The notes under the pieces were generated by a model. It saw nothing but the letters and a program-made list of their open reading frames with translations, made no database searches and was not told where the DNA came from. 60,361 nucleotides of DNA from Candidatus Heimdallarchaeota archaeon (GTDB lineage Archaea > Asgardarchaeota > Wukongarchaeia > Wukongarchaeales > JBHIFL01). Location of the stretch: positions 1-60,361 of the forward strand of contig JBHIFL010000016.1 of the NCBI GenBank assembly GCA_046761065.1, given 5' to 3'. Below, piece after piece: positions 23,296 through 33,782 of this stretch (positions are counted from its first letter, which is position 1; the number at the start of each line of letters is the position of its first letter). The position numbers and the translations under genes are program-made.

Positions 23296-23619
23296 GTGGT
23301 AATAATGGCTTTCTATAAAAAAATGGAAGAAAAATCAGAGGAAAAACCAGAAAAGAAAAAAGAAAAAAAGGTTGGAGTGAAAGGCGCACTTCGGGACCTA
23401 ATCTATGGTGGAGCAATGCATGGTCTTGTTCGTCAAGCCCTAAAGACACGTATGTATTTAGAACATCTCTTTATGCTCATTACCATGGGTGATATGATGG
23501 GCGTACCGATCTTACCACCATACTATTCCTTACGACTGGTCCCTTATGTTGTTCCTCAAATAACTACGTGGAAACGACGAATGCTCAAAGAAAGGGATAT
23601 CACAGACTCGTTTTATTGA
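23296..23619 (+). CDS. Small CstA/ArsA-associated helical protein, paralog 1 (start probably ATG 23305)
   Basis: HLFML..GD.MGVPILPPYYSLRLVPY...WKRRMLKERD motif, shared with 25719 and 29319. Confidence 0.75.
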   Translation: MVIMAFYKKMEEKSEEKPEKKKEKKVGVKGALRDLIYGGAMHGLVRQALKTRMYLEHLFMLITMGDMMGVPILPPYYSLRLVPYVVPQITTWKRRMLKERDITDSFY

Positions 23620-23655
23620 TATAGAGTAAAGAAACACTATATGGGGCATTTTATC

Positions 23656-24657
23656 ATGAGTCAAACATACAGGGACTTTTTCCAACAAAATACAGACGTT
23701 TCGGTTCTAATTTTCGCAGGGAAAGGCGGTCTTGGAAAAACGACATTCGCTGCAGCAACAGGTCTTTACATGGCAAAACAAGGGAAGAAGGTATTAGTCT
23801 TTAGTACAGATCCTCAAGCATCGTTATCAGACATTTTTGAACGTGACATTTTTGGCAAGGGAGAAATCGAAATCCGCACGAATCTGGGTGTAATGGAGAT
23901 TGATGCAGATAAACGCATTGCTGCGTACCAAGACGAAATTCGAGAACGGATTAAGGAAATGTACGGGCTCGTCGAGGTTCCTCCAGAAATCGAAGAATAC
24001 ATCGCAAGTGCTTCTGCAGAACCAGCAATGCATGAAAGTGCGTGTTATGACGCTATGGTAGACTTGGTAGCTGAAGGAAAGTATGATTTATACATTTTTG
24101 ACATGCCTCCTTTTGGTCACGGTGTCCGGATCATCGCAATGGCAGATGTTTTGACTGCATGGATTGAGAAAATGGCAGAAAGCCGCGAAAAAAGCAAAGA
24201 GTATGATCGGGTAGCTTCAACCTTGCGAGGAGGAACGAAGGAAGATAAAGCGACCGAAGATGCCATTATGGAAGAACTCGAAGAGATTCGTGATAAATTG
24301 AGTTCCTTTACCAAGATGCTTCAAGATAAGAAACGCACGGGCTTCTTTATGGTGTTGATTCCGGAAAAGATGGCGATTCTGGACACCCAGCGGGCTCTTG
24401 ATATGTTTGGCCAATTCGGCATTAGATTGACAGGGATCCTTGTCAATATGGTCTATCCTCCTGAGCTTCTCCATGATGAAGGCTTATCTCCCTACTTGAA
24501 GAATCGAATAACCATGCAACAGAACTACATGAAGGAGATCAACCAAATCTTTGGCAAAGACTTGAAAGGAATTTGCCCTATGTTTGATCGCGAACCAAAA
24601 GGTCTGGACAGACTAGACAATGTAGCGGAAGCGTTATTCTCTTGGACGAAAAAATAG
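23656..24657 (+). CDS. ArsA/GET3/TRC40-family ATPase, single-domain subunit 1
   Basis: GKGGLGKTT, STDPQASL, DMPPFGH, IPEKMA, LVNMV. Confidence 0.9.
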   Translation: MSQTYRDFFQQNTDVSVLIFAGKGGLGKTTFAAATGLYMAKQGKKVLVFSTDPQASLSDIFERDIFGKGEIEIRTNLGVMEIDADKRIAAYQDEIRERIKEMYGLVEVPPEIEEYIASASAEPAMHESACYDAMVDLVAEGKYDLYIFDMPPFGHGVRIIAMADVLTAWIEKMAESREKSKEYDRVASTLRGGTKEDKATEDAIMEELEEIRDKLSSFTKMLQDKKRTGFFMVLIPEKMAILDTQRALDMFGQFGIRLTGILVNMVYPPELLHDEGLSPYLKNRITMQQNYMKEINQIFGKDLKGICPMFDREPKGLDRLDNVAEALFSWTKK

Positions 24658-24670
24658 GAGGAACAAAAGA

Positions 24671-25696
24671 ATGCCAGAAAGCTTGGAGGATTTTGTGAAG
24701 AACAAGCCAGATCTGAAATACCTCTTCTTCGGAGGTAAAGGGGGAGTTGGGAAAACCATCGGAGCGGCGGGAGTCGCTTATTATTTCTCAGAAATCTTGG
24801 GTAAACGAACGTTACTTGCTTCACTCAACCCCGTCCACTCCCTCTGTTCCTTATTTAGACAGGACCTCGCTGGGGGAGATCTGGTACAGCTCAAAGGACC
24901 AGCTAATCTCTATTGCTGCGAAGTGGAGATCCAAGACCAAGTAGAGAAGTTCAAGAAGGAAATCGAACAGAAGATCGCTCAATTTCTGAAATATGCTGAC
25001 ATTCCCATCAAGACGCGGGACTTCGTGGACATAGCTACGACAAACCCTGCATTTGAAGAAAGTGCCCAATTTAATAAAATGATCGATATGATGATCGAAC
25101 TTGGGGAGAGCGGAGAGTACGATATCTTAGTGTTCGATTGTGCCGCTGTGGCCAATGCCATTAGACTTATTGGGCTTTCTAAGATCTACGGCTTATGGTT
25201 GAATCGTATGATCAAATCTAGAGAGGAAGCATTGAGTTTACGGGTCAAACTAAGCTTCCGAAAAGAGAAAATTATGAGAGAAATAGCTAAAGACCCTCTA
25301 ATGGCAGATTTAATAAAAACTAAGGAGACAATGGATAAAGCAAGGATTTTGCTTAGAGATCCTAAAAAAACCGCCTTCTTTTTTGTTACAACTCCCCTTG
25401 CGCTCCCAATTTCTGTCGTGACTCGCTTTATCTCAATGGTGAAAGAATTCGATATTCCTGTAGGGGGAGTTTTAGTGAACATGATCATTCCAGAAGATGC
25501 AGTCCGTGGTCAAGTCAGTGAATATCTAAAGAATAAATACATAGAACAACAAGATTATCTATCCCAAATTAAAATGGACCTCGGAGACCTGGTTCGTGGA
25601 ACGATCCCCCTTTTTGAGTCTGAGATCCAAGGGGTTAAGGACATCTCAAAAGTTGCTGAGGCTCTTGCGGTAGAGCTCAAGCTGCATGGCCTCTGA
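24671..25696 (+). CDS. ArsA/GET3/TRC40-family ATPase, single-domain subunit 2 (degenerate switch motifs)
   Basis: GKGGVGKT; SLNPVHSL in place of STDPAH; DCAAVAN in place of DTAPTGH; AGGAGG RBS. Confidence 0.9.
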   Translation: MPESLEDFVKNKPDLKYLFFGGKGGVGKTIGAAGVAYYFSEILGKRTLLASLNPVHSLCSLFRQDLAGGDLVQLKGPANLYCCEVEIQDQVEKFKKEIEQKIAQFLKYADIPIKTRDFVDIATTNPAFEESAQFNKMIDMMIELGESGEYDILVFDCAAVANAIRLIGLSKIYGLWLNRMIKSREEALSLRVKLSFRKEKIMREIAKDPLMADLIKTKETMDKARILLRDPKKTAFFFVTTPLALPISVVTRFISMVKEFDIPVGGVLVNMIIPEDAVRGQVSEYLKNKYIEQQDYLSQIKMDLGDLVRGTIPLFESEIQGVKDISKVAEALAVELKLHGL

Positions 25697-25718: not shown

Positions 25719-25991
25719 GTGCCTGTCCGCCAGAAGCTGAACCAGTTTTTTTCAGCCCTTAAACAGATAATACTTGCTGCAGCTCTTGGTTCGCTCTATG
25801 AATATGAAGTGGAAATGAAAAAAGGGTATAATATACTGACCCTGGTTATCCTATTCGGTGACAGATATGGACTTCCAATTTTCCCAACATACTACCGTCT
25901 TCGAATCCTTCCTCATCTTATTGGTTGGTTCAGTTGGGTAGAGAAAGACCTTCTCGAAGAAAAAACCCTAACTAATCGCCTTAGTCATTGA
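25719..25991 (+). CDS. Small CstA/ArsA-associated helical protein, paralog 2 (divergent)
   Basis: LVILFGDRYGLPIFPTYYRLRILP aligns with paralogs 1 and 3; GGTGA RBS, GTG start. Confidence 0.7.
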   Translation: MPVRQKLNQFFSALKQIILAAALGSLYEYEVEMKKGYNILTLVILFGDRYGLPIFPTYYRLRILPHLIGWFSWVEKDLLEEKTLTNRLSH

Positions 25992-26298: not shown

Positions 26299-28080
26299 TT
26301 ACTTACCCGCCTCTGCAGGGGCCGCCTCAGCAACTACTTCGCCTTTTACTGCTGCTTTATAGCTCTCCCATGCATCTCTGATAACGAATAGTGCCAAGAT
26401 TACCAAGATTATTGCCAGGGTTCCTGAAATACTAGTCATAATCCTTGTAAATGTTGCACTATGACCCCATCTTGCGAAAAGCGCAGGCGTCTCTGCCATT
26501 CTTGCAAATGTGAAAGCATTCCATGCGGTTACGAGAAGTGCAAATATCGTAGTTACAATCATGAAGATCGCTGGAATACCAGTATATTTTGCACTCTTGC
26601 CCCTTCTTGCTAACCAGATGCTTACTAACATCAGTGTTAGGCCTGCCAGTAGCTGATTTGAGCCTCCGAACAGCATCCAGATTTCCTCATGTGCCTTCCA
26701 GTACGCTATTGATCCTGCAATGAGGACAACGATGAATGCTCCGATGTAGGTGTTTTTAACAAGTGGTCCGATCCCCGTTACCTCTCCTGTCACTTCAGCT
26801 AGTGAATACCGGCAAAATCGAACTGCTACTTGGGTAACTGAAGTTGTAAAGAGGATGAAGGTAAATGCTACAAAAGTCGTAACATAGAACGGCCCTCCTG
26901 GAAGGATTGCGTCAAGGATCGTTACTGCGCCACGAACTGTTGCTCCAACAAAAGCACCGGCCCAGATTGTCTCTACACGAGTTACTACCACATAGGAAGA
27001 GAGTGCCACCAGCGCAAGCATGCCTTCGGAAAGCATACTACCGGCGCCCACCGGGACCATGTCTGTTTCCGAATCTACCTGTTTCGCTGACCCACTTGAA
27101 CTCACCAACCCATGCCAGCCGCTGATGGCTCCACAGGCAAGTATCACAAACATCAACGGCCAAACTGCTTTAATAACTCCATCTGTCACTGCAAAGAGGT
27201 CTCCGATTACCGGGTATCCTTCTTTGGCTTCGGTCAGAACTGGAAGGGGTGTAGGTAGGATAGGTGTAAGAAGTGCTCCAATTGCTAGCATGATAATGAA
27301 GGCATAAGCCATGTAGAACGCTAAATAGTTACTGGGCTGCGTGTAGCTCCAGATAGGCAAGACGGCTCCGAGGAATACTAGAACAATAGTCAAAACCAAC
27401 ATGACTTCGAAGTGCCCTGCCCAAGATATCCCGCCTTCTTCCGGGGACCTGAAGAGCCAGCTGCCAAGAAAGAAAATAATGATCCAGCTGACAATTCCGA
27501 TGAGTGTCACGCGGACGATGTCCATTTTTAGCTTGTACAACATCCATCCCATTGCTATACCAATCCCAAAGAGTCCTAGGGTTGGAAGTATTGTTGCGGG
27601 AAATACGTTAAGGAACAAAGAGCCGAACAGGATGAATACTGCGCACACCATAAGCAAATAGATGAAGATGAACCATGTTAGGATCGTCCTTGCTCGGGGA
27701 GAGATGATTTCATACGTTAGGGGTCCATGCGACTTTCCTTCCTCTTTAACTGAAACCGCGATTGAACTGTAATCATGAACCCAGCCGATGAAGAAGTTTC
27801 CAAGAAGTATCCAAAGCAAAGCAGGCAACCATCCATAGGCAAGCGCTAGAAACGGTCCAAGAAGCGGTCCAAGACCTGTTATTGTCTTAAATTGAAATCC
27901 GAATAGAATATATCGGCTTGCTGGGAAAAATTCTGCCCCATCCATATACATATGGGCAGGTGTTGTTCGTGAAGGTTCTGATTCAATGATATTTTTATCG
28001 AACCACTTGGCATAGAACTGATAGCCGATGAAATAAAGCACTAGACCAATCACTATAAAGTATGCTGGATACAATGCCAT
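26299..28080 (-). CDS. cstA: Carbon starvation protein A (CstA) family permease
   Basis: TPAH.YMDG.EF.P, GFQF..ITGLGP..GP, GWVHDY, ACGAISGWHGLVSS, GSMLSEG, IWMLFGGSNQLLA. Confidence 0.92.
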   Translation of the reverse strand: MALYPAYFIVIGLVLYFIGYQFYAKWFDKNIIESEPSRTTPAHMYMDGAEFFPASRYILFGFQFKTITGLGPLLGPFLALAYGWLPALLWILLGNFFIGWVHDYSSIAVSVKEEGKSHGPLTYEIISPRARTILTWFIFIYLLMVCAVFILFGSLFLNVFPATILPTLGLFGIGIAMGWMLYKLKMDIVRVTLIGIVSWIIIFFLGSWLFRSPEEGGISWAGHFEVMLVLTIVLVFLGAVLPIWSYTQPSNYLAFYMAYAFIIMLAIGALLTPILPTPLPVLTEAKEGYPVIGDLFAVTDGVIKAVWPLMFVILACGAISGWHGLVSSSGSAKQVDSETDMVPVGAGSMLSEGMLALVALSSYVVVTRVETIWAGAFVGATVRGAVTILDAILPGGPFYVTTFVAFTFILFTTSVTQVAVRFCRYSLAEVTGEVTGIGPLVKNTYIGAFIVVLIAGSIAYWKAHEEIWMLFGGSNQLLAGLTLMLVSIWLARRGKSAKYTGIPAIFMIVTTIFALLVTAWNAFTFARMAETPALFARWGHSATFTRIMTSISGTLAIILVILALFVIRDAWESYKAAVKGEVVAEAAPAEAGK

Positions 28081-28508: not shown

Positions 28509-29213
28509 TCATATCGATGAACGTACATATCGATGAACGCGTTTCCCTAATGTTTGAAAAAGAGCTGTAGACTGAGGTATATTCGGTAATTGTGCTTTAC
28601 AGGTCACCAAAATGTTAGGTGAGTCTTCAGAAATCGAAACTCTATCAAGGGTGTCAGCTGAATGTTCGACCGTGTCTTGGACTTCCTTCTTTCTAAGGAC
28701 ATAACGGGCAAACTCTCTATCCTTTGTGAAAACTAAAAATTCAGATGTATAGCCAAAATCTTTTGTCGAGAACTCAATCATCTCGCTAGTCTCTGGTCTT
28801 CTGACTTTCACTCGCCCTTCCAAGATTTTTGCGGTAATTGGGACAAGTTCTAAGGTTGGAACCGTCCTTAGGTCTCGAACATCCCCTTGAAACATCAGCA
28901 AATCCTCATCTGTATGAAAGTATCTCAGGATATAGTGGAATGCATTCTCCCGATCCATCGTAGACATGATTACGTTAACTTTTCTGAAGGGGGCCTCTTT
29001 CTTGGGGAATGCCATCATTCTGAAAAGGTTATGTCCAATTCTTCCTCCGATTTTTTCGGAGTGGGGAGCAAGACTATGTGCCACTCGATCCCATGCTTCC
29101 CTCAATAAGCGTTGATTCCACCTAGAGCCGATCATCAGAACTATGATGAAAATCAAAGTCACTACTATAAAGATAAAAGGGCCAATCTGCTCTAATCTCA
29201 AGAAAACCACCAT
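28509..29213 (-). CDS. Single-pass membrane protein, CCDC47/DUF1682-like pattern
   Basis: N-terminal TM, then G..N..L...W......L......G, and V.V.(M/L)...REN.F..I...F....D.L pattern. Confidence 0.55.
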   Translation of the reverse strand: MVVFLRLEQIGPFIFIVVTLIFIIVLMIGSRWNQRLLREAWDRVAHSLAPHSEKIGGRIGHNLFRMMAFPKKEAPFRKVNVIMSTMDRENAFHYILRYFHTDEDLLMFQGDVRDLRTVPTLELVPITAKILEGRVKVRRPETSEMIEFSTKDFGYTSEFLVFTKDREFARYVLRKKEVQDTVEHSADTLDRVSISEDSPNILVTCKAQLPNIPQSTALFQTLGKRVHRYVRSSI

Positions 29214-29318: not shown

Positions 29319-29609
29319 ATGACCACAGATAAAGAGCGAACTAGTCCAAAAAGGCGTAAGGGCGGTATTGGGAGAGCGCTCAAGGACATTTTCTATGGAT
29401 TGGCTGTTCATGATATGGTTCGCTATATGCTTAAGGTGAAAATGAATCTGGACCATCTATTCATGGTTTTAATGATGGGAGAAACAATGGGGGTTCCGAT
29501 CCTCCCCCCATATTACACTTTGCGTCTTATGCCCTATGTTGTGCCATATATCCCGGTTTGGAAGCGACGGATGCTCAAAGAACGAGATCTAACAGATATG
29601 TTCTATTGA
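29319..29609 (+). CDS. Small CstA/ArsA-associated helical protein, paralog 3
   Basis: HLFMVLMMGETMGVPILPPYYTLRLMPYVVPYIPVWKRRMLKERDLTDMFY, closely similar to paralog 1. Confidence 0.8.
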   Translation: MTTDKERTSPKRRKGGIGRALKDIFYGLAVHDMVRYMLKVKMNLDHLFMVLMMGETMGVPILPPYYTLRLMPYVVPYIPVWKRRMLKERDLTDMFY

Positions 29610-30057: not shown

Positions 30058-30316
30058 TCAAAGCTCGCCATACGGTAGACCATACCTGATTAGACCATCT
30101 GGTTAGGGGATTATAATTTAATGCCAGTTATCATTTTCCATGGCCTCGAAAAAGTAATAAGAAGTTCCCAATCATGTATTTCCTAAATGATCAATCATGA
30201 GGGTCTACTCTTCGTAGAGGGAAAGAAAAAAAGAAAAACCAGGTCATTGCAAGAAGCTAAAGATATTATCTTGAAATAAGGCAAACACTGAACAGAACAT
30301 ACCTGCGGTGCATATC

Positions 30317-32935
30317 ATGGCAACTCAAAAGGAGAGTACAATAGACTATTATCCACCAAGAATCGGGGTATTTGTGTGCTACTGTGGCACGAATATTGCA
30401 GGTTCGGTAGACTGCGAACGTGTTGCAACCTTCGCCCGAACGCTTCCTGATGTGGTTTTTGTCCAAACGAACCGATATACATGCTCTGATCCGGGTCAGG
30501 CAGAAATTGAGCAAGCAATCAAGGAACATCAACTCAATCGCATTGTAGTGGCCTCCTGCTCTCCAAAACTCCATGAAACGACGTTTCAACGAAACATTGA
30601 GCGGGCTGGCTTGAATAAATATGTGTTCGAGATGGCCAATATCCGGGAACATGATAGCTGGGTTCATAAAGACCGAAGTGTTGCCACCCCAAAGGCTGAA
30701 GACTTGGTGCGAATGGCAGTAGCAAAAGCTCGATTGCTCGAACCCCTTCCTAAACAAGAGGTGACTGTTTCTAAAGCGGCGTTTACCCTTGCGAAAGATC
30801 ATGTTGCCTTGGTTGACAAAAATTCTGGTCTTATTGTGACCCGTAGTGGGCAGAAAATTCACCTCCCACCCACAGCTACTCTTGAAGAATTCGATGGAAA
30901 GGTACGAATCAACTACTCCCGTCCTGGCGCATTAGTAATTGGAGGGGGGGTAGCGGGGATCCAAGCGGCATTAGATCTTGCGGAACAAAATTACCGGGTT
31001 TTCCTTGTCGAAAAAACCACTACTATTGGAGGGGTGATGGCTCTTCTGGATAAGACCTTCCCCACGTTGGATTGTTCTATTTGCATTCTCGGCCCCAAAA
31101 TGGCGGATGTGGGACGACATGAAAACATTGAGCTGATTTCCTTCGCAGAGCTTGAAAAAATGAGTGGGTATGTAGGAAACTTCAAACTTCAAGTTAGCAA
31201 GAAGCCGCGGTTCATTAACGAAACAGAGTGCAACGGATGCCGCAAGTGTGAAGATGTCTGCCCCGTTGAGGTCACAGATCACACTTTCGAGTTTGATACA
31301 CCACTTGGAACACGTAAAGCAATCTATTGTCCCTATCCCCAAGCAATCCCTCTCGTAGTCGAGATTGATCACGATGCCTGTATCGGCTGTGGGCTTTGCC
31401 TCGAAGCGTGCGACCGGGAGGGTGCTATTGTCTTTGATCAAAAACCAGATGAATATGTGATTGATGTTGGTGCAATTATCGTCGCAACTGGCTACAAACA
31501 ATTCGATCCTAAGACAAGGGATCTTTTTGGTATCAATGATTATGCAAACGTTATCACAGGTCCCCAAATGGAACGCATGATCAATGCGAGTGGGCCCACA
31601 GAAGGGCATATTGTCCGCCCCAGTGATCATAAAGAACCCAAACGGGTGGCATTCATTCAATGTGTGGGCAGCAGAGATGATAAGACAAATCCCTATTGTT
31701 CATCGTTCTGCTGCAACTATACATCGAAGCAAATTCATCTTTTGAGGGAACATGTCCCTGGAGTTGAAGTCTATGTTTATTACATGGACATCCGATCTTG
31801 GGGCGAGTTTGAATCTTTTTATAAGCGCACACGGGATTTAGGTGTGAAATACATTCGCGGGTTGCCTGTGGACATCTATGAGATTCCAGAAACTAAAAAC
31901 TTGATCATTGAAGCAGAAGATACGCTACGGAATGAGTTGAGTGAAATTGAAGTTGATATGGTAGTTCTCGCAACGGGAGCGGAACCAGCTGAGGGCACAA
32001 AACGCCTGAGCCGAATTCTGAAGATTACCCTTGGTGAAAATGGATTCTTTGCCCCGGCCCACATCAAACTCCGCCCGGTTGATGCGACCGTTGATGGAAT
32101 CTTCCTGGCAGGGTGCGCTTCTACCCCCCGAGATATTTCGGACTCGGTCGCAAGTGCGAGTGCAGCCGTGACTCGCGCAGCAAATATTTTGTCGAAAGAA
32201 ACAACTACTGTTAGTTCCATAGTCGCACAAGTGAACGAGGCGCTCTGTGATGCTTGTCGGACCTGTATAGGGGTGTGCCCTTATGATGCCATCTCGATTG
32301 ATCGGACAATCAAGAAAGCCGTAATCAATGTGGCCCTTTGCAAAGGGTGCGGAGCATGCGCCAGTTATTGCCCTACAGGCGCAATTGATGTGCAAGGGTT
32401 CACCAATGCCCAAATCATGGCCCAGATTCGAGCAGCCCTTGAGCCCGAAACCTTAATTTCTGGAGAACGCCGTATCATAATGTTTTGCTGTAATTGGTGT
32501 TCTTATGGTGGAGCAGATGCGGCCGGGTTAGGGCGTAAGGCTTATCCCCCCAATATTCGGATTATTCGGACGATGTGTTCGGCGCGCGTTAACCCGGTCT
32601 TTGTACTAGAAGCCTTTATGCTGGGAGCGGATGGGGTGTTAGTCAGTGGGTGCCATCCGGGGGACTGTCAATATGTTGATGGAAATTACAAGTGTGAGCG
32701 GAACTATAAGGCATTACGCAAAGCCGTAATTAATGCAGGAATCGAACCAGAACGTATACGGCTCGAATGGATCAGTGCCTCAGAGGGGATCCGCTTCCAG
32801 AAGATCGTCACCGAATTTGTTCAGCAAATTGAAGCCCTTGAGCCAAACCCACTCAAAGGCGTAAGACTTTTAGAATATCAGCAAGAGATAAAGGCAACCG
32901 CGGAGCTTGGTGCAGAGGGCGGTAATGGCCGTTAA
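30317..32935 (+). CDS. hdrA: Heterodisulfide reductase subunit A fused to MvhD
   Basis: RIGVFVCYCG, SCSP, ALVIGGGVAG, DKTFPTLDCSICI, QCVGSRD..YCS..CC, ferredoxin motifs; C-terminal FCCNWCSY, RTMCS.RV, GCHPGDC (MvhD). Confidence 0.93.
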   Translation: MATQKESTIDYYPPRIGVFVCYCGTNIAGSVDCERVATFARTLPDVVFVQTNRYTCSDPGQAEIEQAIKEHQLNRIVVASCSPKLHETTFQRNIERAGLNKYVFEMANIREHDSWVHKDRSVATPKAEDLVRMAVAKARLLEPLPKQEVTVSKAAFTLAKDHVALVDKNSGLIVTRSGQKIHLPPTATLEEFDGKVRINYSRPGALVIGGGVAGIQAALDLAEQNYRVFLVEKTTTIGGVMALLDKTFPTLDCSICILGPKMADVGRHENIELISFAELEKMSGYVGNFKLQVSKKPRFINETECNGCRKCEDVCPVEVTDHTFEFDTPLGTRKAIYCPYPQAIPLVVEIDHDACIGCGLCLEACDREGAIVFDQKPDEYVIDVGAIIVATGYKQFDPKTRDLFGINDYANVITGPQMERMINASGPTEGHIVRPSDHKEPKRVAFIQCVGSRDDKTNPYCSSFCCNYTSKQIHLLREHVPGVEVYVYYMDIRSWGEFESFYKRTRDLGVKYIRGLPVDIYEIPETKNLIIEAEDTLRNELSEIEVDMVVLATGAEPAEGTKRLSRILKITLGENGFFAPAHIKLRPVDATVDGIFLAGCASTPRDISDSVASASAAVTRAANILSKETTTVSSIVAQVNEALCDACRTCIGVCPYDAISIDRTIKKAVINVALCKGCGACASYCPTGAIDVQGFTNAQIMAQIRAALEPETLISGERRIIMFCCNWCSYGGADAAGLGRKAYPPNIRIIRTMCSARVNPVFVLEAFMLGADGVLVSGCHPGDCQYVDGNYKCERNYKALRKAVINAGIEPERIRLEWISASEGIRFQKIVTEFVQQIEALEPNPLKGVRLLEYQQEIKATAELGAEGGNGR

Positions 32936-32984
32936 TAATTTGAAGTTACAAATCATGAAGATTGTTTCTATCGGAGATAGGAAA

Positions 32985-33782
32985 TTGGCAGAAATTACCT
33001 TCAAATTGAAAGAAGGCTCGAAGATCCCCATTGAAGCCGAAGCAATCTGTCCGGATCAACTTGCAGGTAAGACGCTCAAAGAGATAGGGAACCTCCCAGT
33101 TTGGAAAGGCAATAAAGAGCTCAAGTTGAGTGATTTATTTGAGATTAAAGGTGAGGCGGGATCGGACTCAACGGAGCTCGTAGTACGAGTTGTGAGTGAA
33201 ACCACTAAGATCAAAAGAATAGGGCAAGGAATGAGCGCAGGAAAGCTGATAATAGAAGGTAATGCCGGAATGCATTTGGCAGAAGAGATGCAAGGCGGTG
33301 AAGTACTTGTAACCGGTGATGTAGATGACTGGGCTTTCACTCAAATGAGAGGCGGAACCGCCCTCGTACAGGGTAACGCAGGTCACTATTTAGGAGCCGC
33401 AGAATGGGGTAACTGGCAAGGTAATACTGGAGGGATGATTACGGTCGAAGGTAATGCTGGAAATGAGGTGGGAGCATGGCTAGCGGGTGGAACAATTGAG
33501 ATCAAGGGCAATGTTGGTGAATTCCTTGGTGTTCACATGAAGAAGGGCGTTATAGTGGCTCACGGAAAAGTAAACCCTCGTGTCGGAGCTGAAATGACCG
33601 GGGGGCAAATCATCCTCTTTTCTGAGCCAGATAGACTACTTTCAGGCTTCGAAAAGAGTGATGTGATGGTTGAAAGTGTTGAAATAAATGGAAAACCGCT
33701 CTCCGGACCCTTCATCAAGTTCATTGGGGATTTTGCAGAACGAAAAAAGCCGAAAGGGGTCATTCTCATACGAAAAAAATAA
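32985..33782 (+). CDS. fwdC: Formylmethanofuran dehydrogenase subunit C
   Basis: IEAEAICPD, WKGN...LSDLF, GXXMXGG beta-helix repeats, F.GD.AE..KG; TTG start after GGAG. Confidence 0.88.
   Translation: MAEITFKLKEGSKIPIEAEAICPDQLAGKTLKEIGNLPVWKGNKELKLSDLFEIKGEAGSDSTELVVRVVSETTKIKRIGQGMSAGKLIIEGNAGMHLAEEMQGGEVLVTGDVDDWAFTQMRGGTALVQGNAGHYLGAAEWGNWQGNTGGMITVEGNAGNEVGAWLAGGTIEIKGNVGEFLGVHMKKGVIVAHGKVNPRVGAEMTGGQIILFSEPDRLLSGFEKSDVMVESVEINGKPLSGPFIKFIGDFAERKKPKGVILIRKK

Follow-up and report, generated by a model that had tools for sequence, protein, structure and literature searches.

An adjacent pair of Get3/ArsA-family ATPases in an Asgard archaeon as a candidate heterodimer with a single catalytic site

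The 60,361-nucleotide stretch analysed here (the window; contig JBHIFL010000016.1 of the Candidatus Heimdallarchaeota archaeon assembly GCA_046761065.1) encodes two adjacent ATPases of the Get3/ArsA family, which we term A1 and A2. A1 retains the catalytic aspartate of switch I, whereas A2 has an asparagine in its place. We consider it probable that A1 and A2 form an ATP-sandwich heterodimer with one catalytic site, acting together with the small CstX proteins on the permease CstA. The analysis establishes the conservation of the motifs, the single duplication behind the pair, its co-inheritance and its gene context; heterodimerisation, the retention of ATP by A2 and the link to CstA activity are features that we infer from comparison of sequences. 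The Get3/ArsA ATPases are understood to be either symmetric homodimers or fused pseudo-dimers. If the reading is correct, this natural, ancient half-site heterodimer would reveal what share of the Get3 cycle requires one hydrolysis event only, and structural studies would gain a trapped state that is already built in. The module to which the pair belongs spans many bacterial and archaeal phyla beside a common nutrient permease, and the logic of the ATPase is an entry point to it. The gene module itself was published by Castillo and Saier in 2010 (PMC2963123); the asymmetric, one-site heterodimer reading is absent from that paper.

Sequence motifs and fold

A1 (338 residues, positions 23641–24657, forward strand) is predicted to be a catalytically competent Get3/ArsA-family subunit; A2 (341 residues, positions 24671–25696, forward strand) is a degenerate member, predicted to be non-hydrolysing. 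Both open reading frames (ORFs) given by the first-pass annotation are real, although it began the pair at 23656, which is the second methionine of A1 and an alternative start; the ORF of A1 starts at 23641. The stop codon of A1 (TAG) sits within the GGAGG Shine-Dalgarno sequence preceding the start of A2. Both proteins are single-domain and match PF02374 (227.7 bits for A1 and 181.4 bits for A2, cut-off 24.3) and TIGR00345 (220.8 and 184.3 bits, cut-off 135). They share 30% identity. The ArsA equivalogs TIGR04291 and NF041417 score A1/A2 far below their cut-offs (101.2/69.6 bits against 650 and 130.5/97.9 bits against 800, respectively). The best sequence matches are archaeal Get3 structures (3ug6/3ug7 and 3zq6, E 1e-42 to 1e-52).

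In deviant Walker A ATPases, each site is formed by a P-loop and switches I and II from one subunit and the signature lysine of its partner. The deviant Walker A motif with its signature lysine is kept by both A1 (AGKGGLGKT, residues 26–34, positions 23716–23742) and A2 (GGKGGVGKT, residues 21–29, positions 24731–24757; signature lysine K23). Switch I is STDPQAS in A1 (positions 23803–23823), with the catalytic D57 encoded at 23809–23811. In A2 it is SLNPVHS (positions 24821–24841), with N53 in place of the aspartate; the first-pass annotation had located the asparagine codon at 24827–24829, and an AAC codon is indeed found there. Neither subunit has the switch II consensus DTAPTGH. A1 has FDMPPFGHG (positions 24097–24123), which keeps D..P.GH, and A2 has FDCAAVANA (positions 25133–25159). 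All of the motifs read at first pass, among them the intact GKGGVGKT P-loop of A2, are thus borne out. When A2 is aligned to archaeal Get3 (3ug6 and 3zq6) with HMMER, SLNPVHS falls on STDPAHS and FDCAAVAN on FDTAPTGH. In Get3, D57 is the catalytic residue; the yeast D57N mutant binds ATP but does not hydrolyse it, and stays trapped in the closed form (PMC12506534), in agreement with what the first-pass annotation had stated.

The CxxC motif of 3ug6 and 3zq6 (CDFC and CEFC) is aligned by HMMER with SPYL in A1 and SEYL in A2, and it is missing from 119 of the 120 A1 database orthologues. We take the CxxC of Get3 to be a zinc site at the dimer interface. It was described at first pass as a feature of eukaryotic Get3; its absence from A1 and A2 stands, but CxxC is also archaeal and is found as CAFC in a further Get3 copy of the same genome.

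The AlphaFold2 model of A2 (predicted local distance difference test (pLDDT) 88; predicted template modelling score (pTM) 0.87) shows the full Get3 fold, including the α-helical client-binding subdomain. Its best structural matches are 3ug6, 3zq6 and yeast Get3 (E about 1e-25 to 1e-20, template modelling (TM) score 0.7–0.8), and entry 9ns5, which is yeast Get3 D57N, is among the matches. A2 is therefore a member of the Get3/TRC40/ArsA superfamily by descent and fold, not by catalytic signature. The helical regions of A1 and A2 have a composition in MILFVW residues (0.31–0.34) close to that of CxxC Get3 (0.33) and a similar methionine content; they are more charged (DEKR 0.33–0.34 versus 0.28). 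Composition is a crude measure, and it did not discriminate between the client groove of a chaperone and an energiser.

Conservation of the asparagine in A2 and the aspartate in A1

Conservation was read in two samples. The database sample comprised the best 120 orthologues of A2 (55–94% identity), which span Asgard groups, Bathyarchaeia, Chloroflexota, Bacillota and others, and 120 orthologues of A1. The locus sample comprised 52 species-level loci, from archaea and bacteria, taken from GTDB genomes and relatives; A1 could be read in 51 of these, giving 171 A1 sequences in total. The closest database protein to A2 is 94% identical and is named for a Candidatus Hodarchaeota metagenome-assembled genome (MAG).

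Whether asparagine is conserved in the second gene, the check proposed by the first-pass annotation, is settled by the counts: asparagine is present in 120/120 database orthologues and 52/52 loci of A2, and aspartate in 120/120 and 51/51 of A1. S-L-N-P-[VI]-H-S and D-[CT]-A-A-V-A-N-A occur in every one of the best 120 A2 orthologues, and S-x-N-P in all 52 loci. In switch II of A2, the glycine of DTAPTGH is replaced by alanine in 52/52 loci and the histidine by asparagine in 49/52. The asparagine is encoded by AAC in 35 loci and by AAT in 17; the use of both synonymous codons points to selection on the amino acid itself. In A1, S-[TV]-D-P-Q-A-S is found in 51/51 loci and STDPQAS in 120/120 database orthologues, and the D, P, G and H of switch II are invariant, the variants seen being YDLVPLGHA and FDMMPHGHA. 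An exhaustive profile search of 1.84 billion representatives gave A2-type proteins which, where the motif could be read, all carry asparagine, with one exception (serine).

The rest of the nucleotide site of A2 is retained. The GGKGGVGKT P-loop is invariant (52/52 loci and 120/120 orthologues), as are the Walker B residue D156 and N270 of the VN..IP motif, which we take from Get3 structures to contact the base. Mean pairwise identity is 58% for A2 and 60% for A1. As A2 is as constrained as A1, and its P-loop and N270 are invariant, A2 is not decaying.

The signature lysine shows a directional pattern. It is invariant in A2 (172 sequences), while in A1 it is replaced by glycine (GGGGGVGKT) in 2 of 51 orthologues, both from Burkholderiales MAGs (L040 and L046); in L046, the motifs of the A2 orthologue are the usual ones. 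Such a direction would be expected if hydrolysis were needed at the A1 site only. A divergent A2-type database protein (P0255, 326 residues) has a decayed P-loop, GGKSSVGNT, and keeps the signature lysine and the asparagine (STNPAHS). Its sequence fits a subunit whose own site would be dispensable but whose trans-acting lysine would still be needed.

Phylogeny and linkage of the pair

In a maximum-likelihood tree of 94 sequences, A1 forms one clade (support 99) and A2 another (100), and the two are sisters (99). Both are separate from the canonical CxxC Get3 clade and from the single-copy CstA-linked homologues. From this tree, A1 and A2 stem from one ancient duplication that has been conserved across archaea and bacteria. 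The internal topologies of the two clades mirror each other. Pairwise identities of A1 and A2 correlate with r = 0.97 over 51 loci, a value to which shared ancestry contributes. The gene order, A1 followed by A2, is the same in every locus with enough sequence, and the genes are almost always adjacent. The gap between the A1 stop and the A2 start is mostly −4 to +30 nucleotides, and the stop and start codons often overlap.

Loci in which CstA is linked to only one ATPase provide a natural control. These come from Halorubrum and other Halobacteria, Halomonas/Vreelandella, Gemmatimonadota and Brevibacillus. Their ATPases keep STDPAHS and, mostly and where it can be read, DTAPTGHT. Among the CstA-linked loci compared, degeneracy is confined to those in which a neighbouring gene encodes a competent paralogue. 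Taken together, adjacency, the mirrored trees, the canonical single-gene relatives and the directional lysine pattern favour a heterodimer with one catalytic site.

Within its phylum the pair is patchy. Orthologues of A2 (about 60% identity) were found in 4 of the 40 relatives searched, whereas nearly all 40 have a canonical Get3-type match. The presence of Bathyarchaeia, Bacillota and Chloroflexota among the nearest A1/A2 sequences suggests that the whole cassette has spread horizontally. Cultured carriers of the pair include Thermaerobacter, Caldinitratiruptor microaerophilus and, by genus, Pyrobaculum.

Two further ArsA-family genes were seen on other contigs of the same genome. One (contig C15, L001:1465-2427) encodes a canonical archaeal Get3 with GGKGGVGKT, STDPAHS, DTAPTGHT and CAFC; since the genome has this protein, A1 and A2 are additional to the standard Get3 and do not replace it. 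The other (contig C109, L002:1453-2430, 326 residues) has AGKGGTGKT and a canonical DTAPTGHT, and the tree places it with the single-copy CstA-linked homologues. Its start is overlapped by a CstX-like gene (L002:1166-1459, 46–56 bits). No CstA was found on the 3.3 kb of contig C109 that were examined, and the only clear CstA of the genome is the copy in the window.

Fused forms of the pair were considered and rejected. P0122 (693 residues) has an A1-type N-terminal half and an A2-type C-terminal half; it is a single sequence and has no recognisable A2 switch I. P0121 is A2 followed by an unannotated tail of 330 residues. Several two-domain ArsA-family proteins of about 640 residues (P0276, P0299, P0267, P0270, P0279, P0282 and P0298) have one half with a degenerate switch II, D.AAGAH. 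In P0276 and P0299, the degenerate half also has asparagine at the position of the switch I aspartate, and the other half is canonical. These are not fused A1/A2, as their halves score about equally against the A1 and A2 profiles; the one readable neighbourhood of P0276 has no CstA. Half-site degeneracy thus seems, by its motifs, to have arisen more than once in the Get3/ArsA family.

The CstA, CstX and CstY-like genes

By its gene content, a context that the first-pass annotation of the pair did not mention, the pair belongs with the CstA-linked ArsA homologues: the window has CstA and three CstX-type genes, and the association is found in most of the 52 loci. CstA is the commonest neighbour of the pair (36 loci) and is usually directly upstream on the same strand. 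The recurrent order across related loci is cstA, one or two small genes, A1 and A2, all on the same strand. No ars genes were found among the recurrent neighbours of related loci or among the ORFs examined around the pair.

In the window, the CstA-family permease (593 residues, PF02554, E 1.1e-106) is encoded at positions 26299–28080 on the reverse strand. The first CstX-type protein (copy 1, 107 residues, positions 23296–23619, forward strand) is encoded directly 5′ of A1. Copy 2 (90 residues, positions 25719–25991, forward strand) lies 3′ of A2 and is divergent, with 28% identity to copy 1 (E 2e-12); the same position is filled in Pyrobaculum loci. Copy 3 (96 residues, positions 29319–29609, forward strand) gives 123 bits with copy 1 and 127.5 bits with the CstX profile. 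None of the three copies has a Pfam match at E up to 1, and copy 1 has a weak match to NF041419 'cory-CC-star' (36.8 bits, cut-off 80). A CstX homologue stands directly 5′ of A1 in nearly every paired locus. This CstX is very strongly conserved between bacteria and archaea, with a near-invariant core of GD..G.P.LPPYY and WK. In the 41 paired loci whose upstream sequence was long enough, the CstX-type genes number two in 29 cases, three in 2 and one in 10; single-ATPase loci with a detected CstX-like gene have one copy each. The maximum hydropathy of the CstX-type proteins (KD19 about 1.3; 1.34 in copy 1) gives no clear transmembrane segment, and CstX is not tail-anchored. Its conserved helix is moderately hydrophobic.

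A complex of CstX copy 1 with A1, A2 and two ATP molecules was predicted with a score of 0.59. The best control, in which A2 was swapped for an unrelated protein, scored 0.32. Contact agreement between runs was at least 70%, and the pLDDT of the partner at least 51. In calibration on 80 solved complexes and 110 mismatched pairs, the mark was reached by 58 of the former and 2 of the latter; of these, only 7 solved complexes, together with both mismatched pairs, did so at a score of 0.60 or lower. The calibration counts apply roughly, as we used our own alignments and included the ligand. The docking gives weak support to the idea that CstX may sit on A1 and A2.

A CstY-like single-pass membrane protein (234 residues, positions 28509–29213, reverse strand) has an N-terminal transmembrane segment (KD19 3.12). 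Homologues are found in two other loci only, both from Bathyarchaeia. Modelled from three sequences, it gave a best model with pLDDT 75 and pTM 0.71, and four poor ones. The best matches of that model are chains of endoplasmic reticulum (ER) translocon entries: 7tm3_4 (E 4e-10, TMq 0.68), 9i78_4 and 6w6l_7. We take the 7tm3, 9i78 and 6w6l complexes to contain CCDC47. The protein also has a faint match to PF07946 (CCDC47; E 0.16) over the transmembrane region.

Further downstream, an ORF at positions 30308–32935 (forward strand, 875 residues) has by eye the look of an HdrA-type heterodisulfide-reductase flavoprotein, with several 4Fe-4S motifs. The ORF that overlaps it (positions 32907–33782, forward strand) has repeated G-N-x-G, as in formylmethanofuran dehydrogenase subunit C-like proteins, also by eye. 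A scan for sigma-70 promoters and terminators gave counts equal to the expectation from shuffled sequence; such a scan is not meaningful for an archaeon.

Proposed mechanism

We propose that ATP would fill both sites and close the A1/A2 dimer. The A1 site would be complete, with D57, the P..GH of switch II and, in trans, K23 of A2, and should hydrolyse its ATP. The A2 site keeps the P-loop and N270, with asparagine for the catalytic aspartate and Ala-Asn for the Gly-His of switch II. A2 would probably bind and hold ATP, as does yeast Get3 D57N, and may serve as a latch or sensor. With A2 holding its ATP and hydrolysis at A1 only, there would be a single power stroke per cycle. The CstX proteins would link the helical subdomains to CstA; the usual two CstX paralogues, matching the two ATPase paralogues, would work with the pair on CstA. 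The output is most likely the coupling or gating of CstA transport, an idea that goes back to Castillo and Saier, and less likely the assembly of CstA in the membrane. We lean to coupling or gating because the helical subdomains are more charged, a canonical Get3 is already present and the CstY-like gene is rare. The first-pass annotation had gone further, to an obligate heterodimer with one active and one regulatory pseudo-ATPase site. The comparative patterns favour the one-site heterodimer part of that proposal; heterodimerisation itself, ATP binding by A2 and a regulatory role are inferred.

Several points weigh against the one-site heterodimer. Co-inheritance and adjacency would fit two homodimers in one pathway as well, and the case for binding between A1 and A2 is comparative throughout. 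The asparagine of A2 could still permit slow hydrolysis. The switch II of A1 departs from DTAPTGH, so the activity of A1 is assumed. In the window, CstA is on the opposite strand, and co-transcription with the ATPases is not given here. The support from CstX docking is weak, and the prediction gave no interface. The sole candidate for a natural A1–A2 fusion, P0122, with its unrecognisable A2 switch I, is possibly an artefact.

Alternative explanations

The alternative that survives best, although we regard it as unlikely, is that the pair acts as a chaperone or targeting factor of the Get3 kind, helping a client (CstA, CstX or the CstY-like protein) to insert into the membrane or to assemble, and does not energise transport. 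The full Get3 fold modelled for A2, with its helical subdomain, would suit such a role, as would the resemblance of the CstY-like neighbour to a component of an ER translocon complex; the conserved helix of CstX could fill the groove, and the docking, weakly supported, points the same way. However, the helical subdomains are more charged than those of CxxC Get3 and no richer in methionine, CstX lacks a tail anchor, only 2 other loci have the CstY-like gene and the genome already encodes a canonical Get3.

It is improbable that both sites are active at unequal rates. On this account A2 would hold no true pseudo-site but a slow one, with the asparagine or a neighbouring residue positioning the water, and the pair would resemble E. 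coli ArsA, in which a fast site is combined with a slow one. The two sites of that enzyme are reportedly non-equivalent, and the invariance of the A2 P-loop, D156 and N270 implies that binding of nucleotide and magnesium is probably intact. Set against this, all 52 loci combine two independent hits on catalysis in A2 (Asp to Asn, and Gly-His to Ala-Asn), and in some divergent proteins of the A2 type the P-loop has then been lost too. Moreover, the same substitution in yeast Get3 (D57N) leaves the enzyme deficient in hydrolysis (PMC12506534).

Two separate homodimers, A1 hydrolysing and A2 a non-hydrolysing ATP-sensing switch or scaffold in the same CstA/CstX pathway, seem to us quite improbable. 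Structures of the Get3 family are normally homodimeric, both subunits carry the signature lysine in most genomes, and co-inheritance alone does not discriminate between this arrangement and a heterodimer. The lysine, however, would be pointless in a dead A2 homodimer, yet it is invariant there and occasionally lost from A1; the overlapping stop and start codons suggest equimolar synthesis of A1 and A2; and degeneracy was seen only beside a competent paralogue.

More doubtful again is a wider proposal, that the module is a dedicated prokaryotic machine for membrane-protein assembly and not an energiser of transport. A half-site Get3-like ATPase, with one engine and one ATP latch, would use CstX adaptors, joined in some archaea by a CCDC47-like anchor, to insert or mature the multi-pass CstA. 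If this were true, the presence of the module in Asgard archaea would mark prokaryotic relatives of Get3 and CCDC47 in one pathway. Finally, we reject the explanation that the asparagine is a sequencing error or that a redundant paralogue has recently decayed in one lineage, the scenario of mostly aspartate-bearing orthologues that the first-pass annotation had named against itself: AAC is one base from GAC, but aspartate is found in none of the 120 orthologues or 52 loci, the asparagine is written with both of its codons and A2 matches A1 in conservation.

Comparison with known systems

The closest published description is that of Castillo and Saier (Int J Microbiol 2010:187373, PMC2963123), who defined cstA-cstX-(cstY)-arsA-homologue clusters from gene context. 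These have the same components as the locus described here: CstA, CstX (about 90 residues), single-domain ArsA homologues (about 330 residues) and, in some archaea, CstY (about 210 residues). The CstA-linked ArsA homologues are their clusters 14–18. They proposed that CstA draws energy from the ArsA homologue, to which CstX would link it, and used ArsA–ArsB as the analogy. In their cluster 15, adjacent pairs of ArsA homologues with 25–31% identity were noted in two organisms. Of the SxD motif they wrote that its D 'can be substituted only by N', and they described the DTAP motif as remarkably well conserved; D and N were not assigned to the two paralogues, and the basis of their account was 26 SEED instances. 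A heterodimer is never mentioned in that paper (0 occurrences). Our literature search found no experimental tests of the cstA-cstX-arsA module since the 2010 prediction, and a 2019 survey of Get3-like proteins (PMC6593721) mentions neither heterodimers nor degenerate sites.

Archaeal Get3 (Methanocaldococcus jannaschii 3ug6/3ug7 and Methanothermobacter thermautotrophicus 3zq6) is as long as A1 and A2 and shares their deviant Walker A motif. It differs in forming homodimers or tetramers with STDPAHS, DTAPTGH and CxxC; A1 and A2 are without CxxC and form a separate clade, and A2 is without the catalytic aspartate and the Gly-His. Yeast Get3 D57N has the same switch I change as A2. There it was engineered and sits in each of the two subunits of a homodimer, whereas in A2 the change is natural and ancient, is confined to one paralogue and is accompanied by an altered switch II.

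E. coli ArsA (1f48) resembles the pair in having two homologous nucleotide-binding halves and in making a secondary carrier (ArsB) ATP-driven. It differs in that the halves are fused, that it has a metalloid-binding cysteine triad and that it belongs to an ars operon. Both of its halves presumably have the aspartate. In double-domain proteins, the two copies of the P-loop and STDPA motifs were reported not to be significantly different (PMC2963123).

Mycobacterial BagA/BagB (Rv3679/Rv3680; PDB 6bs3) are likewise two different Get3-like ATPases encoded together and present in one entry. Their sequence relation to A1 and A2 is very distant (49.4 and 37.9 bits against the equivalogs NF053622 and NF053621, with cut-offs of 400 and 521, over the P-loop region only), and they have no CstA context. 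The 6bs3 structure is a precedent for a prokaryotic heteromeric pair of Get3-like ATPases, the arrangement that we propose for A1 and A2.

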